32,000 nt of DNA from Microcoleaceae cyanobacterium (GCA_049647265.1 JBARXJ010000061.1:103585-135584), one strand, 5' to 3'. Shown: positions 7,942 to 13,801, counted from the first letter of the stretch. The notes: a model not told the origin generated them from the sequence alone. A program made the numbers and translations.

Positions 7942-8015
7942 ACCTCACCCCAACCCCTCTCACCTCTCCCTGCCCTCTCGACCTCACCCCAACCCCTCTC
8001 CTAGTAGGAGAGGGG
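7942..8015. repeat. C-rich direct repeat plus hairpin (intergenic repeat element)
   Basis: acctcaccccaacccctctc occurs at 7942-7961 and 7981-8000. The second copy runs into the hairpin cccctctcc-tagt-aggagagggg (7993-8015). Confidence 0.8.
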
Positions 8016-8114
8016 CAAAAAAATCCCTAATTTATAGCAATATTCAATCGTATCCGAAATTGAATTCATATAATGGGAAGTACAAATTATTATCCTTAAT
8101 AGCCACCTGAATTA

Positions 8115-8537
8115 ATGGAACCCATAACTGCTACTGCTATTATTACCCTTCTCTCTAGTAAATTTATTGAAAAAGCCACTGATAAGCTGTCAGAAGGGGG
8201 AGTACAAAAACTCAACGATCTGCGTCAACTGATATGGCAGAAAGTACGAGGACAAGCAAAAGTCGAAAACGCCCTGAAACAAGTTGAACAAGGTTCAGAG
8301 TCAGAGTCAGATGTTCAGCCTGTAGCTGCATTTCTCGAAACCGCAATGACGCGAGATCCCCAATTTGCCCAACAGGTTCAAACCCTTGCCCAGGAAATTA
8401 ACCAAGAAATTAATATTGATATGCCTAATGCTAAAGGTGTTCAGAATGTCTTCGGTGGTGAAGCTTATCAGTCTATTGATAATAAAGGGGTAAATGTTCA
8501 AGGTGGGAGTGGTAATACCTTTAATATTAATTATTGA
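8115..8537 (+). CDS. Helical effector-like N-terminal module of an NLR-like protein, ended by in-frame TGA
   Basis: 140-aa ORF in the same frame as the NB-ARC ORF downstream. It has a hydrophobic first helix MEPITATAIITLLSS and a G/N/Q-rich tail. See findings. Confidence 0.6.
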   Translation: MEPITATAIITLLSSKFIEKATDKLSEGGVQKLNDLRQLIWQKVRGQAKVENALKQVEQGSESESDVQPVAAFLETAMTRDPQFAQQVQTLAQEINQEINIDMPNAKGVQNVFGGEAYQSIDNKGVNVQGGSGNTFNINY

Positions 8538-8663
8538 CTCAACTCGTCCGAAGAGGATCGGATAAAGTTAACTCCCCCTTATGAAAACTTAGGGATACGC
8601 GGTATTGCTGAACGCGATAAATTTGTCGGACGCGATCGCACACTCATAGATCTTCATCAATTA

Positions 8664-11186
8664 TTGCAACAAAATAACCAAGTTGCGATCGCCGCAGCGG
8701 TTATTGGTATGGGCGGAGTCGGTAAAACAGAACTTGCTATTCAATACGCCCGTCAACACCTGGAAACCACCTATACAGGCGGCGTATGTTTCCTAACTGG
8801 CAATAGTTTTATCTTGGAGTTAATTCAATTTGCCCGTCCTCGCTTCTTCCCTAAAATGGATTTTAGCGGCTTTTCAGAAGCCGAACAATTAACCTATTGC
8901 TGGCAACATTGGGCGGAAGGGGAAGTCTTGTTAATTGTAGATGATGTCACAAACTACAAACAACAGGTTAAACCCTATTTACCCAGTTCTCCTCGGTTTA
9001 AAATATTAGTGACCACGCGAGAACAAATATCTAACGTTACGCCCCTCAACTTAGAAGTTCTGCATCCTGATGATGCCTTAAAATTACTTGAGTTTATCAT
9101 AGGAAAAAATCGCCTCAACGCAGAAGCCGAAACCGCAAAAGAACTGTGTAAATGGTTAGGTTATTTACCGTTGGGGTTAGAATTAGTCGGGCAATATTTA
9201 GCAGAAGATGAAGATCTGTCCTTGGCAAAGATGCTGCAACGCCTGCAACGTAAACGCCTACAACATTCTTCACTAAAAGATGCAGATACAGCAGAAACCG
9301 CAAAATTAGGAGTCGCCGCAGCCTTTGAATTAAGCTGGGAACGGTTGCAACAACAGCCAGAAACGCAACAATTAGGCTGTTTGTTATCGCTGTTTTATCC
9401 CGATGCAATTTTATGGGAATTAGTAGAAGCGGTGTATCAATATTGGCAAGGGGAAGATATTGATCTCGAAGATCTAGAAGACAACAGACGTAAGTTAGTT
9501 AAACTCAGCCTATTTCAACGAACTAAAGAGAGAACCTATCGCCTACATCAACTTTTACGAGAATTTTTCCGCGACAAACTGGAGAAACAGGAAGACGCAA
9601 CGGCAATGAAACAAGCCTTTATTAACACGATGGTCATTATTGCCCGTCAAATTCATCCAGCTATGATAACGAAACATATCAAACAGGTTGAACCCGCTAT
9701 TACACACATTGAGGAAGTGCCTAATTCTTTGCCTGAATTCTTATCAGATGAAGCTTTAGCTCTGTTTGATCGCTTAGGTTGGTTCTATCAAGCTCAGAAC
9801 TTGTATTCTGAAGCTGAATTGTGGCTAGAGAAAAGTGTCGAGATTGCAAAAAGCCGTTTCGGAGAGGAACATGAGGATGTTGCTACTAGCCTAAGTAATT
9901 TAGGTTCACTTTATCACATCCAAGGACGCTACAGTGAGGCTGAATCTCTTGGTGAGCAAGTTTTAAAGATCAGACGACAGCTATCTGCCGCAGATGACCC
10001 CAGTCTTACTACTGACTTGAATAATTTAGCCGTTGCTTACCATTACCAGGGACGCTACAGTAAGGCTGAACAGTTGTTTAAAGAAGCTTTAGAAATAGAA
10101 AAAGAATTGTGCGAAAAGAGAGAAAAGGTTTTAGAACAAGATCTAAAAAAAATGCAAGAAATAGCAATAAAAAGACTGATTAAAAAAAATATAAAAAAGC
10201 ATATTTACAAGCATGAACTAGAGTCAGAGATAGACAAAATATTGTCCGAAAAGTATTTGGATATAAAACAAATATATAATGATTATATTAGTATTGCATT
10301 GAGCCTGAATAACTTAGCTGAGTGTTGTGCTTACCAGGGACGTTATAGCGAAGCTGAACAGCTATATTACGAGGCTATAGAAAGATATAAAAAGATATTT
10401 GATACCGACGAACTTTCAAAAGTTGACAATTCAGATGTTGCTGTTGTTCTAAATAACTTAGGCATACTTTACTTTTTGCAAGGATACTATAATGAAGCTG
10501 AACATCTTAATCAGCAAGCTTTAGCCATAAGAAAACGCTTATTTCAGGGCGACCATCTTAGTATTGCACAAAGCTTTAATAGTTTAGCTGAACTTTACCT
10601 TGACCAATTCCAAGGACGCTATGACGAAGCCGAACCCTTATGTCGTGAAGCTTTAGCTATGAGAAAACGTTTATTTAGAAATGGTCACCCAAGTATAGCA
10701 GAAAGTTTAGATAATTTAGCTACATTCTATCAGTCGCAAGAAGACTATGACGAAGCTGAACGCTTATTTAAACAAGCCTTAGACATGAAAAAATACTTCT
10801 TTAAAGGTGACCATCCTAACATTGCAAAAACCTGTAATAGTATAGCTGAACTTTATTTATTACAAGAACGCTATGACGAGGCTACAACCTGGTATTACAA
10901 AGCTTTAGAAATCAGAGGACGTTTATTGGGTGAAGAACATCCTGACACTGTGCAAAGCTTTATTAGTATTGCTAAACTTTGTCAATGCCAAGGAGACTAT
11001 GAGCAAGCTGAAGGTTTATATTTGTTTGCTTATGCTACTTTTAGAAAGAATTTAGGCGAGGATCATCCTAAGACAGAAAATATTCGGCTGCAACTAATCA
11101 TGTTCTGCCAACAAGCGATCTATGAGAATCAAACCGATCAATTGAGTAATAAATTCACTAAGTTTTTAATTTCTCAACTTCAGTAA
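8664..11186 (+). CDS. STAND NTPase: NB-ARC domain plus nine 42-aa TPR (TPR_12/KLC-like) repeats
   Basis: NB-ARC motifs: P-loop GMGGVGKTELA (8706-8729), Walker B LLIVDDV, ILVTTRE, GYLPLGLELVG. There are 9 repeats of the type A-SLNNLA-LY-QGRY-EAE-L. The called TTG start is doubtful because the frame is open upstream to the TGA at 8535-8537. Confidence 0.85.
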   Translation: MQQNNQVAIAAAVIGMGGVGKTELAIQYARQHLETTYTGGVCFLTGNSFILELIQFARPRFFPKMDFSGFSEAEQLTYCWQHWAEGEVLLIVDDVTNYKQQVKPYLPSSPRFKILVTTREQISNVTPLNLEVLHPDDALKLLEFIIGKNRLNAEAETAKELCKWLGYLPLGLELVGQYLAEDEDLSLAKMLQRLQRKRLQHSSLKDADTAETAKLGVAAAFELSWERLQQQPETQQLGCLLSLFYPDAILWELVEAVYQYWQGEDIDLEDLEDNRRKLVKLSLFQRTKERTYRLHQLLREFFRDKLEKQEDATAMKQAFINTMVIIARQIHPAMITKHIKQVEPAITHIEEVPNSLPEFLSDEALALFDRLGWFYQAQNLYSEAELWLEKSVEIAKSRFGEEHEDVATSLSNLGSLYHIQGRYSEAESLGEQVLKIRRQLSAADDPSLTTDLNNLAVAYHYQGRYSKAEQLFKEALEIEKELCEKREKVLEQDLKKMQEIAIKRLIKKNIKKHIYKHELESEIDKILSEKYLDIKQIYNDYISIALSLNNLAECCAYQGRYSEAEQLYYEAIERYKKIFDTDELSKVDNSDVAVVLNNLGILYFLQGYYNEAEHLNQQALAIRKRLFQGDHLSIAQSFNSLAELYLDQFQGRYDEAEPLCREALAMRKRLFRNGHPSIAESLDNLATFYQSQEDYDEAERLFKQALDMKKYFFKGDHPNIAKTCNSIAELYLLQERYDEATTWYYKALEIRGRLLGEEHPDTVQSFISIAKLCQCQGDYEQAEGLYLFAYATFRKNLGEDHPKTENIRLQLIMFCQQAIYENQTDQLSNKFTKFLISQLQ

Positions 11187-11476: not shown

Positions 11477-11806
11477 ATGAAGCTACCCAATGGCGATAAA
11501 GCTGAAATTCCCTTGCAAAAGTTAATGAGTTATTGTCTTAATTCAGAACATCCTAGCGGTAAACACAAAGCCCGAGTTTTTGCATCAGTTCTCGGAATTA
11601 CCGCAGAGAATGTTGAACAGTTACAAGAACTCATTAAAGTTGCTGCGGTTGAGGGTGAAGTCGTACAACAAAATACAACTGCTTTTGGTCAGCAGTTTAA
11701 AGTAGACTGGAATATTCCTAAAATTGAAACATGGAAACTGCGAACTATCTGGGAAATCAAACACAATTCACTAAATCCTCGTTTAATTTCTGCATTTTTA
11801 ACCTAA
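11477..11806 (+). CDS. DUF6883-like protein (first gene of a coupled pair)
   Basis: 109 aa. KLMSYCLNSEHPSGKHKARVFASVLGIT resembles the conserved core I remember for DUF6883 proteins. Its stop TAA lies 1 nt before the next ATG. Confidence 0.55.
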   Translation: MKLPNGDKAEIPLQKLMSYCLNSEHPSGKHKARVFASVLGITAENVEQLQELIKVAAVEGEVVQQNTTAFGQQFKVDWNIPKIETWKLRTIWEIKHNSLNPRLISAFLT

Positions 11807-11807
11807 A

Positions 11808-12068
11808 ATGAAAACAATACAATTATTTGATACGGTTACTAATATTAAATCTATTACTCAAGAACGATTGACTTTAGTTGAACCGAATTATCAATCTATT
11901 CAATCTTTACCCAGTGGACAAGTTGGGACTATTGTTGAAATTTATAATGAAGTTAATCCCTGTCAATATTTAGTTGAATTTGCTGATACTCAAGGACGTG
12001 AATATGCAATGGCAATTTTAAAAGCCGATGAAATTTTAGTTCTGCACTATGAACTGACAATGGCTTAA
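11808..12068 (+). CDS. DUF4926-like protein (second gene of the coupled pair)
   Basis: 86 aa. GQVGTIVEIY...YLVEFADTQGREYAMAILKADEI matches the small beta-rich DUF4926 pattern as I remember it. Confidence 0.55.
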   Translation: MKTIQLFDTVTNIKSITQERLTLVEPNYQSIQSLPSGQVGTIVEIYNEVNPCQYLVEFADTQGREYAMAILKADEILVLHYELTMA

Positions 12069-12214
12069 AATTTAAATAAGAATATGTTGTAAATATAATG
12101 ATACACGATGTGTGGCTTCGCGATACTGCTATAGCGGACGTAAAGCGTTTGCAAACGTATTCTAATGAGCTATACTACAATTAATCTAAAATATAATATC
12201 CTCAAAATCAGATT

Positions 12215-12505
12215 ATGCTAAATGGTATTAAACAACGAGGAATCGTTACTAAAGATGGGAAAATTGAAATACAAGCGCCTGAACTCCCAGAAGGAACAAT
12301 TGTTGAAGTTATTATTTTAGTTGAGAAAGAAGCAATAGAATCAGAGACTCCCTCACAAATTCCACAAGATACAACAGAATATTTACTCTCAAATGAATCT
12401 AATCGTCGTCATTTGATGACTGGAATTAAAGATGTAGAAAATAATACTAATCTTGTTAGTTTTACTCAAGAGGAATGGAATGAGGAACATAACATTCACT
12501 CCTAA
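12215..12505 (+). CDS. Hybrid antitoxin: AF2212/DUF104-like N-terminus plus YefM-type C-terminal toxin-binding tail
   Basis: The N-terminus GKIEIQAPELPEGTIVEVIIL is DUF104-like. The C-terminus TEYLLSNESNRRHLMTGIKDVEN resembles YefM TxYLLxSxxNxxRL. It overlaps the yoeB start. Confidence 0.65.
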   Translation: MLNGIKQRGIVTKDGKIEIQAPELPEGTIVEVIILVEKEAIESETPSQIPQDTTEYLLSNESNRRHLMTGIKDVENNTNLVSFTQEEWNEEHNIHS

Positions 12506-12743
12506 CGCTTTCAACGATTTTAATAATTGGGCAAAACAAGATAAGAAAATTTATCGTAAGATTATTACTCTGATTAATGATATACTTCGTCAACCTTTTA
12601 CTGGGTTGGGTAAACCTGAACCTTTGAAACATGAGCTGAAAGGATATTGGTCACGGCGCATTACTGATGAGCATCGTTTAGTCTATAAGGTTAGTGAGAA
12701 TGCAATTATTATTCTAAGTTGTCGATTTCATTATGATAATTAA
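12480..12743 (+). CDS. yoeB: YoeB/Txe family mRNA interferase toxin
   Basis: MRNITFTPNAFNDFNNWAKQDKKIYRKIITLINDILRQPFTGLGKPEPLKHELKGYWSRRITDEHRLVYKV...CRFHY is near-collinear with E. coli YoeB, including the C-terminal His-Tyr. The ORF track begins at ATG 12453, but ATG 12480 fits the family. Confidence 0.9.
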   Translation: MRNITFTPNAFNDFNNWAKQDKKIYRKIITLINDILRQPFTGLGKPEPLKHELKGYWSRRITDEHRLVYKVSENAIIILSCRFHYDN

Positions 12744-12775: not shown

Positions 12776-13801
12776 TTAATCTTTATAAGGTTCTAAAATT
12801 AAGCTACCATCCCCTTGATTTAAATTTGAATTGGAAGAGAAACGCCAATATTGTTGATAAAATTCTAAGAAGTTTTGACCGATAATTCCATCTATTTCTA
12901 AAACATCTAAAACAGAGGGAGAGTTTAAAATCACAACGCCTAAATTATTTTGTTCAAATTGACCGATTTTAACTTGTTCTAAAACAGAATAACCTGCGTC
13001 TTCTAATCCACAAAATCCTTGAACTTGAATCGGTTGTATTTCTGTATCACTTAGATTTAATTGCTGAGCTAGTTTTTGAGAAATAAAGATTAAGTCGGCT
13101 CCTGTATCGAGCATAAACGTTAAGTTTGTTTGGTGATTTACTGTAACAGAAGCTAACATGACCCCTAATTTATTGGTTAATACAATTGCGTCTTGTTGTT
13201 GCTCTTTTGGTAGAACAGAAGGCTTCGATAAATCTAATTGTTTGGTTTGAGGATTTATTTTAAGATCGAAGAACTTTAACACATCCATTCCTAATACGCC
13301 GGATAAGTTTTGAGGAATGATTGTATTTGTAAATTCTAAGGCTTGTAGTTGATTAACTGTCACTTGATTAATATTAATTTTGGGTAATTGATGTAAATTG
13401 GCGCTCATATCTTGACAGTCATCTCCGGCGACGGCTGAGGTTAATTCTTCACTCTGAATGGGTTTACCAATTAATCCTAACTGTTGAACGAATGCAGAAG
13501 AAACCATTGTGGTTGATGCGCCCGTATCCAATAAAAAATTGCCTGAAAGATTACCGACTTTTAACGCAATTGTAAAGACTCTACTATTTCCTAAAGATTG
13601 TAAGTTAATCGTAGTTTCTCCGGTAACTTTGGCGGCAGGAATATTAAGCTCTTTTAGGGGAACAATTGCATCTAAAATAGGATAATTTTTAAGAGAGAGA
13701 TTTTGAGCCAGCGCTAAATGATTAAACGGCTGAACTTTTAATACTGAAAAAGTTGATAAAAATCCTAAACTCAGAATTGAGATGAAATGAATCAGTTTCA
13801 T
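12776..13801 (-). CDS. Secreted two-domain retropepsin-like (clan AA) aspartic protease
   Basis: Signal peptide MKLIHFISILSLGFLSTFSV...ALA. Two catalytic motifs, LLDTGAS (D92) and MLDTGAD (D232), are each followed by a GxxGxD/NxL flap-like motif (GVLGMDVL, GIIGQNFL). Confidence 0.75.
   Translation of the reverse strand: MKLIHFISILSLGFLSTFSVLKVQPFNHLALAQNLSLKNYPILDAIVPLKELNIPAAKVTGETTINLQSLGNSRVFTIALKVGNLSGNFLLDTGASTTMVSSAFVQQLGLIGKPIQSEELTSAVAGDDCQDMSANLHQLPKININQVTVNQLQALEFTNTIIPQNLSGVLGMDVLKFFDLKINPQTKQLDLSKPSVLPKEQQQDAIVLTNKLGVMLASVTVNHQTNLTFMLDTGADLIFISQKLAQQLNLSDTEIQPIQVQGFCGLEDAGYSVLEQVKIGQFEQNNLGVVILNSPSVLDVLEIDGIIGQNFLEFYQQYWRFSSNSNLNQGDGSLILEPYKD

Follow-up and report, generated by a model that had tools for sequence, protein, structure and literature searches.

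A conserved in-frame stop codon in a family of cyanobacterial NLR genes and its possible programmed readthrough

Introduction

The subject of this report is an NLR-like gene (NLR, NOD-like receptor; NOD, nucleotide-binding oligomerisation domain) of a Microcoleaceae cyanobacterium, located at positions 8,115 to 11,186 of a 32,000-nucleotide stretch of DNA (GCA_049647265.1 JBARXJ010000061.1:103585-135584), the whole of which is referred to below as the window. In this gene, a small open reading frame (ORF) encoding a predicted cell-death module with an amyloid-type tail and a long one encoding an NB-ARC NTPase with tetratricopeptide repeats (TPR) share one frame that is broken by a single TGA, and an in-frame stop at the same position recurs in divergent relatives. 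We consider it probable that this stop is a site of programmed readthrough, through which one frame would supply abundant free Bell-motif protein together with a minority Bell-motif-NLR fusion. The broader proposal, that these loci represent a cyanobacterial NLR family in which conserved, hairpin-assisted readthrough furnishes an executioner and a rare fusion and so replaces the duplicated motif of two-gene systems, has in our judgement a somewhat better than even chance of being correct.

Gene pairs in which a Bell protein with a BASS motif accompanies an NLR have been described in filamentous bacteria by Dyrka et al. (2020; bioRxiv 10.1101/2020.01.06.895854), whose screen took in Bell proteins of fewer than 200 amino acids (aa) and matching motifs on both partners, and whose account does not mention stop codons. 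Because matching motifs were required on both partners, loci like that of the window would escape this screen. No report of readthrough or of in-frame stops in Bell/BASS or bacterial NLR systems was found in the full-text literature; the components are known, and what is new is their stop-interrupted wiring and the recoding that it implies.

Results

One frame broken by a single stop codon

A sequence-only reading of the window had proposed an effector-NOD-TPR frame with one nonsense codon, and in its anatomy this description holds. The small ORF and the TTG-initiated ORF 8664-11186 lie in the same frame (8664-8115 = 549 = 3x183), the TGA is the only stop between them, and the 42 codons of the intervening linker are open and translate, exactly as had been given, to LNSSEEDRIKLTPPYENLGIRGIAERDKFVGRDRTLIDLHQL, a coding stretch that includes the FVGRD helix preceding the P-loop (GMGGVGKT, 8706-8729). 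Past the TGA, frame 0 runs open for 882 codons, as against 48 and 26 in frames +1 and +2. As also read at first, the linker has neither ATG nor GTG and TTG 8664 has no Shine-Dalgarno-like element. The only start-like codons in frame within the linker are ATA, ATA, ATT and ATA, and the first TTG, at 8664, is the only canonical start for the NLR; it lies about 15 residues before the P-loop and inside the NB-ARC/AAA_16 profile match, the Pfam matches to NB-ARC and AAA_16 beginning at residues 39 and 28, respectively, of the translation from 8538. No GGAG-like element was found in the sequence 5' of this TTG (...CTCATAGATCTTCATCAATTA), nor any promoter-like or terminator-like site between the TGA and the TTG, and the sole plus-strand promoter-like site before 8830 is the one ahead of the small ORF (Table 1). 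The NB-ARC and TPR regions follow directly 3', adjacent, collinear and on the same strand (Pfam), and all parts of a STAND NTPase of the NB-ARC type are present, namely NB-ARC domain, Walker A P-loop, helical region and repeats. The data support one effector-NOD-TPR frame, made up of small ORF, linker and NB-ARC/TPR region and broken by a single stop, with a linker that is real coding sequence.

Table 1. Features of the stop-interrupted NLR locus (positions in the window)
Feature	Position	Strand	Basis or remark
Promoter-like site TTCATA-17-TATTAT, 5' of the small ORF	8065..8093	+	Weak consensus match only
Small ORF	8115-8537	+	ATG start, 140 aa, ends at TGA 8535-8537
Helical N-terminal domain, residues 1-100, Bell-like cell-death module (predicted)	8115..8414	+	AlphaFold2 model, family, motif
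G/N/Q-rich C-terminal tail, residues 102-140, BASS-like motif (predicted)	8418..8534	+	Predicted disorder, conserved in relatives
In-frame TGA followed by C (TGA-CTC), candidate readthrough site	8535..8537	+	Sequence, relatives
Outer helix, UGACU (8535-8539) with AGUUA (8566-8570), enclosing the inner hairpin	8535..8570	+	RNAalifold, pair counts
Inner hairpin GUCCGA-AGAGGA-UCGGAU, candidate readthrough stimulator	8546..8563	+	RNAalifold, pair counts
Post-stop linker, 42 codons, without ATG/GTG/TTG	8538..8663	+	Homology, pN/pS, Pfam
NB-ARC STAND NTPase domain	8652..9278	+	Pfam PF00931, E 2.2e-15, residues 39-247 counted from 8538
DUF7779 / winged-helix-like region after NB-ARC	9348..9593	+	Pfam PF25000, E 1.2e-5, 25.9 bits against a 27-bit cut-off, just sub-threshold
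TPR sensor region (TPR_10, TPR_12, NPHP3-type repeats)	9756..11075	+	TPR_10 E 4.3e-81, TPR_12 E 8.1e-75
TAA, end of the long frame	11184..11186	+	Sequence

Conservation and identity of the stop

The close homologues of the 140-aa protein, eight in number, all stand alone; one is an 83-aa fragment, and the others are 136-143 aa long. Forty further loci were assembled from the genomic contexts of homologues, one genome scan and one metagenome scan, the pattern for the last being taken from the narrower alignment A3, as alignment A2 was too diverse. Seventeen of the 40 have an in-frame stop at the end of the small protein's equivalent (the N-module) and, after it, a long open frame into the sensor, and their source assemblies come from NCBI, JGI, ENA and Logan. 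They fall, with the window, into three lineages whose linkers are unrelated, one comprising the window, L001, L003, L005, L007, L010, L016, L017, L018, L020 and L021, the second L026, and the third L035-41. What stands behind the stop varies as well: an NLR of the window's type in L001, L010 and L018, a different NB-ARC protein in L005, another in L007-9 (after TAG) and in L016, L017, L020 and L021 (after TGA), and a non-NB-ARC module in L003, while L026 and L035/36/37/39/40/41 have a motif and linker unrelated to those of the window. Identity of the N-module to that of the window descends to 36-44% among the stop-bearing loci. Hundreds of codons are open in frame 0 and fewer than 100 in frames +1 and +2, except in L001 and L016, which shift to frame +1 after 70-96 codons, and many divergent stop-bearing loci keep intact downstream ORFs of 650-950 codons.

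The stop is TGA everywhere except in L007-9, where it is TAG in three assemblies; TAA occurs in none, and the base at position +4 is C throughout, save for an A in L017 and L026. Among the 19 ORFs of at least 150 aa in the window, 14 end in TAA, 3 in TAG and 2 in TGA, which is thus the rarest stop and in those two ORFs terminates in the normal way, and TAA is also the stop of the classic GKIEADTVNF pairs described below. UGA rather than UAA, with C at +4, agrees with the context rules for leaky stops (PMC7026636). An apparent sense-codon variant, P0009, with 'W' at the position of the stop, was rejected, the DNA having TGA and the protein being an alternative-code gene call on a short contig (L018:488-1648). 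Gene callers split loci of this kind, give them arbitrary TTG or CTG starts and, as here, even change the genetic code; such mis-calls could be mined for further stop-interrupted loci and are a pitfall when sense-codon variants are sought.

Coding evolution downstream of the stop

From its seventh codon the window's linker aligns with residues 31 onward of P0163 (BLASTP 57% identity, E 2e-38), an NLR of the classic kind that has both a motif and an ATG of its own, and the NLR of L035-41 is 85% identical to the classic NLR of L027, starting 22 codons past the stop. Given this homology to the N-termini of classic NLRs, the codons after the stop have counterparts in relatives that are translated there. 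Within the window-type linker, the ratio of nonsynonymous to synonymous differences per site (pN/pS) is 0.45 in frame 0 and 1.04-1.25 in the other frames (small numbers), and the differences are distributed 11/12/23 over the three codon positions. Distances from stop to P-loop in the family that has the window's linker are 171, 177, 180, 183, 192 and 204 nucleotides (nt), all multiples of 3, whereas in classic pairs the same distance modulo 3 is 2, 2, 0, 2 and 1. A conserved in-frame stop is combined with coding-type evolution downstream in that very frame, as is expected of programmed readthrough.

Three architectures in one family

The stop-interrupted form is one of three in which the N-module is found. 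Classic pairs (L022, L024, L027/28/31/34/38 and L029/30/32/33) have TAA or TAG, once TGA-A, at the end of the small gene, and an NLR that has its own ATG, stands in any frame, and repeats at its N-terminus the tail of the upstream protein (8/8 loci, Smith-Waterman z 5.7-19.9). Loci with the in-frame stop have no ATG for the NLR, a possible one in L026 apart, and no such copy on it (z <=1.2 in 12/12 loci tested; for the window's tail, aligned with the 130 residues that follow the stop, z = -0.2), and in L035 and L039 the P-loop is preceded by none of the codons ATG, GTG and TTG. The dichotomy in the motif copy is complete among the loci tested: the classic ones all have it, together with an own ATG and an arbitrary frame, and the in-frame ones all lack it. 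The third form is a stop-free fusion of N-module, motif and NB-ARC, represented by P0014, which lies on a 7.7 Mb contig, by P0098, these two being confirmed in the DNA, and by P0131, known from its protein sequence. Close NB-ARC homologues normally bear an N-terminal adaptor or motif.

Several relatives have other arrangements. The P0098 fusion (L046:46-5874) is preceded by a PNP_UDP-TIR gene, overlapped at its stop by a gene for a TIR protein and followed by a further NB-ARC gene, surroundings that suggest a defence island. In L014:4001-5152, L015:4001-5782 and L019:3001-4152, from Lyngbya aestuarii BL J, Capilliphycus salinus (complete genome) and one metagenome, helical residues 1-100 are fused in frame to the winged-helix/TPR part of a window-like NLR, and amyloid-like tail, stop and P-loop NTPase are all gone; these are either deletion derivatives or a new short architecture. 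L003:4332-9230 and L047:634-8221 have common flanks, CHRD/DUF4394 upstream and the tRNA-methyltransferase gene mnmA downstream, around different Bell cassettes, the first consisting of N-module, TGA, a 129-aa module without Pfam family and a 387-aa ORF, the second of another Bell-like gene, of 145 aa, with a window-like NLR after it, and the site looks like a variable hotspot for cassette exchange. The post-TGA module of L003 (L003:6430-6816) also forms the C-terminal part of P0145 (277 aa), in which, judged from protein sequence alone, it is apparently fused to the N-module without a stop. P0158, encoded in L047, was considered as a close relative that has an ATG of its own, and was set aside, its TPR region hopping between frames through long-read indels or decay. 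The closest relative, L001:6415-8044, with 88% N-module identity, has a 25-nt insertion just past FVGRD that places its NLR in frame +1, and the NLR ends at 507 aa beside Tn7 TnsA-like remnants; because of this insertion and this ending, L001 is taken as a decaying copy. P0157, which begins MTERLRQ..., the frame +1 reading found in L001, apparently marks a second such locus.

RNA structure after the stop

The structure that RNAalifold predicts from ten junctions has an inner hairpin, spanning nt 12-29 as counted from the stop, within an outer helix formed by UGACU (nt 1-5) and nt 32-36; the hairpin's 5' arm starts 12 nt from the stop's first base, about 8 nt past the stop codon. On alignment A4, 92.7% of the cells at hairpin pairs are paired, as against 14-41% in slid registers. 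Between two clades, both partners of pairs 15-26, 16-25 and 17-24 are altered, pair 5-32 is UA in some sequences and CG in others, and the clades do not encode the same amino acids at the covarying positions. The unrelated linkers of L026 and L035-41 likewise contain a perfect hairpin, whose 5' arm is at nt 12-13. A positional scan for a 5' arm 12-14 nt from the stop gave 17/18 in-frame junctions, 1/11 classic ones and 4-5% of background positions, and the stop-free fusion P0014 has no such hairpin (n = 1). Position and pairing make the hairpin a plausible stimulator of readthrough. Its stability was dropped as an argument, since dinucleotide shuffles do not single out the window hairpin; the best value against shuffles is that of L035 (z -2.5), and RNAfold on the window alone favours another register, AACU/AGUU, pairing 8541-8544 with 8566-8569.

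The small protein

The 140-aa protein begins MEPITATAIITLL, and its MEPIT N-terminus is a hydrophobic helix of the 'MEPIS' type, a feature common to the Bell, Hell and Babybell cell-death domains, the Bell-type folds themselves differing in topology (bioRxiv 10.1101/2024.11.07.622273). An AlphaFold2 model has helices over residues 6-100, with a predicted local distance difference test score (pLDDT) of 70-89, and a disordered tail at 102-140 (pLDDT <50). The tail contains two pseudo-repeats, KGVQNVFGGEAYQSIDN and KGVNVQGGSGNTFNINY, is conserved in relatives, and is the element whose equivalent is duplicated at the NLR N-terminus in the classic ones; we read it as a predicted amyloid-signalling-like motif. 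A profile search of 1.84 billion representative proteins delineates an N-module family of 387 clusters at 50% identity, mostly 130-155 aa long, with a common layout of about 100 aa of helical domain and a G/N/Q-rich tail of 35-40 aa that comes in several sequence classes. Against Pfam, NCBIfam and PADLOC the N-module gives sub-threshold matches only, such as EspA at 20 bits against a cut-off of 23.4 bits. The sequence-only reading had found the N-module unplaceable in any described family, and for library models this still stands; by its features, and by having relatives that form canonical pairs, the module nevertheless fits a Bell-like cell-death domain with a BASS-like motif.

Discussion

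A model of programmed readthrough

Starting from the conserved in-frame stop, we infer the following course of events. Most ribosomes would terminate at TGA 8535 and release the free 140-aa executioner, a helical domain of membrane-targeting type with an amyloid-type tail, and a minority would decode the TGA as sense and continue into a fusion of about 1,023 aa that joins Bell domain, motif and NB-ARC/TPR. In E. coli, UGA readthrough is established as a competition between Trp-tRNA and release factor 2 (RF2) (PMC10570021), and by analogy Trp-tRNA in competition with RF2 would be the most likely decoder here. The further steps are drawn by analogy with HET-S/NWD2 and Bab/Agp. On binding of a trigger by the TPR sensor, the NOD would oligomerise; the oligomerised fusion would cluster its N-terminal motifs and nucleate an amyloid fold, which would then template the abundant free Bell-motif protein, whose helical domain may damage the membrane and kill the cell, perhaps in defence. 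Readthrough would set a low ratio of sensor to executioner and would make the motifs on the two sides identical, and no second motif copy would therefore be needed on the NLR. On this proposal, NLRs stand behind an in-frame stop without a start codon or a motif of their own because they are made as readthrough fusions.

Several findings weigh against this proposal. Membership in the Bell group is claimed from features and family context rather than from a match to a reference Bell sequence or fold: a Foldseek search of the AlphaFold2 model against the PDB gave a best E of 2.2 and TM-scores <=0.34, and a profile search of PDB sequences with the N-module returned nothing relevant. Some relatives have broken frames (L001, and L016 and L047, whose assemblies are prone to indels or decaying), in L026 a possible in-frame ATG follows the stop at a distance of 26 codons, and the linkers of L035-41 are uninformative, with few differences and no purifying signal (pN/pS 1.17). 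As for the hairpin, the scan criteria were set after the data had been seen, the covariation amounts to few independent events, essentially between two clades, stability does not rise above that of dinucleotide shuffles (window z = -0.53, 44/200; L007 +0.21), and the classic junction L028 also folds well. Programmed readthrough in chromosomal bacterial genes is, moreover, rare.

Alternative explanations

Of the four explanations that the sequence-only reading had left open for the stop, readthrough is now the favoured one, and the others lose ground to different degrees. It is unlikely that the two ORFs are separately translated genes, the NLR starting at TTG 8664 or at a non-canonical codon, perhaps by re-initiation, and the shared frame being a relic of a fused ancestor. 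There is a TTG at 8664, gene callers put starts at TTG or CTG in relatives, the stop-free fused relatives could be such ancestors, L026 has its in-frame ATG, and Shine-Dalgarno sequences are often absent from cyanobacterial genes. Yet L035 and L039 have none of the three start codons before the P-loop, and a start at TTG 8664, besides lying inside the Pfam match, would drop at least 36 codons homologous to translated NLR sequence and leave an NLR with neither amyloid motif nor N-terminal adaptor, unlike all classic relatives. Re-initiation, for its part, needs no common frame, yet at least five changes of length have left the frame as it was, three unrelated linkers all retain it, and the bias to TGA-C and avoidance of TAA would go unexplained. 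The newly split effector and sensor pair envisaged at first is likewise unlikely, as start codon and NLR motif copy are both missing and the indels preserve the frame. A dead all-in-one NLR, in which a nonsense mutation killed a fused gene, so that the small protein or nothing works and the downstream ORF decays, we hold to be improbable. Decay does occur in the family: L001 has its 25-nt insertion and an NLR cut to 507 aa beside transposon remnants, L014, L015 and L019 have lost motif, stop and P-loop, and L047 hops between frames. Against it stand the intact downstream ORFs of 650-950 codons in many divergent loci, the frame-0 constraint on the linker and its frame-preserving indels, and a stop kept at 36-44% N-module identity and before different sensors; moreover, three unrelated linker lineages would each have to show one stop exactly at the module boundary and none elsewhere.

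Specialised decoding, whether selenocysteine at the UGA with the hairpin as a selenocysteine insertion sequence (SECIS) or a dedicated suppressor tRNA, has a very small likelihood. UGA is the stop in most loci, and the hairpin, about 12 nt downstream, is roughly where a bacterial SECIS would be; however, L007-9 use TAG within the same architecture in three assemblies, an Rfam scan of 8400-8800 that included SECIS models gave no match at E <=10, the hairpin loops have no sequence conserved between lineages, nothing would call for a redox residue in a linker that is disordered, and a tRNA scan of the window found no tRNA gene. Other kinds of recoding were rejected: +1 frameshifting, suggested by 'U UGA C', because the downstream sequence is in frame 0 and the P-site codons cannot re-pair, and transcriptional slippage because the junction has no homopolymer. 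For an ordinary fused gene to appear interrupted through faulty sequencing or assembly, one wrong base would be enough (e.g. TGG to TGA), and the probability of this is negligible: TGA or TAG stands at the same position in the 17 other loci from the four sources named above, which makes 18 loci of independent assemblies with TAG in one lineage, and the eight close homologues, the fragment apart, end at 136-143 aa. Because the stop is old and shared by divergent loci, assembly error and the very recent pseudogenisation that had also been considered are excluded, and the window's stop is neither an error nor a recent mutation.

Relation to known systems

With Bell/BASS pairs the locus has in common that a helical domain, about 100 aa long and ending in a short motif of amyloid type, is encoded collinear with and immediately 5' of an NB-ARC/TPR NLR in a filamentous cyanobacterium; unlike them, it has an NLR that lacks a motif copy and a start codon and follows a TGA in frame. 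In architecture and domain order, the product of readthrough would match the all-in-one NLRs of fungi and bacteria, from which the window's locus differs in that the frame is interrupted by TGA at the module boundary and the main product would be the free N-module. In HET-S/NWD2 of Podospora and Bab/Agp of E. coli (bioRxiv 10.1101/2024.11.07.622273), a sensor motif templates an executioner motif and so activates a helical domain of pore-forming type, and the window's locus may by analogy work in the same way; its MEPIT... N-terminal helix, of the 'MEPIS' type, is a further likeness to Bab/Agp. Those systems have two genes and two motif copies, however, whereas the window's locus would use a single copy in both roles through recoding, and Agp, the partner of Bab, has the layout TPR-GreA/B-C-PIN and is not an NLR. 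Viral readthrough offers the nearest precedent for the junction, with the UAG of murine leukaemia virus (MuLV) gag-pol, followed by a pseudoknot after an 8-nt spacer, and the UGA of Q-beta A1 (PMC7026636). A leaky stop, a pyrimidine (C) at +4, a structure about 8 nt past the stop, a fixed ratio of short to extended product and a common N-terminus would be the points in common (PMC7026636); the window's locus, by contrast, belongs to a chromosomal bacterial gene family, and its small hairpin is of modest stability and a candidate for this role only.

Should readthrough be confirmed, it would be among very few programmed events of this kind in bacterial chromosomal genes, in a defined context (UGA-C and a hairpin about 8 nt past the stop) that is open to genetic dissection. 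The model, if true, would add a third wiring of an NLR to an amyloid executioner, between the two-gene and the all-in-one forms, in which one motif copy serves at once as seed and as substrate, divergence between sensor side and executioner side is impossible, and their ratio is set by translation. By extension, the dosage of the sensor would be tied to termination efficiency, and so, for example, to translation stress or phage suppressor tRNAs. Surveys for motif pairs would miss stop-interrupted loci, and the classic, stop-interrupted and fused versions of near-identical NLRs provide natural controls for experiment.

Neighbouring sequences

The closest relatives of the locus are in Microcoleaceae, Limnoraphis and Lyngbya, and the HIP1 palindrome GCGATCGC, a cyanobacterial signature, occurs 20 times in the window against 0.2 expected, with copies in the linker (8632-8639) and at the start of the NB-ARC region (8685-8692). 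The divergent intergenic region between a homoserine-kinase-like gene and the Bell-like gene contains, within 7942-8015, a 20-nt direct repeat, ACCTCACCCCAACCCCTCTC, at 7942-7961 and 7981-8000, and an 11-nt perfect palindrome, CCCCTCTCCTA / TAGGAGAGGGG, at 7993-8015, followed by an A-run. On the 3' side of the NLR, 11477-12743 holds small genes of toxin-antitoxin type, DUF6883 (11477-11806) and DUF4926 (11808-12068) being followed by an overlapping pair, an antitoxin-like ORF (12215-12505) and a toxin of the YoeB family (12453-12743); in L010, too, DUF6883 comes after the NLR, and a YoeB pair is found in L047. Beyond them, on the minus strand at 12776-13801, a 341-aa ORF with a signal-peptide-like N-terminus and two D-T-G-A motifs (LLDTGASTT and MLDTGADLI) suggests a two-lobed aspartic protease of the pepsin/retropepsin type.

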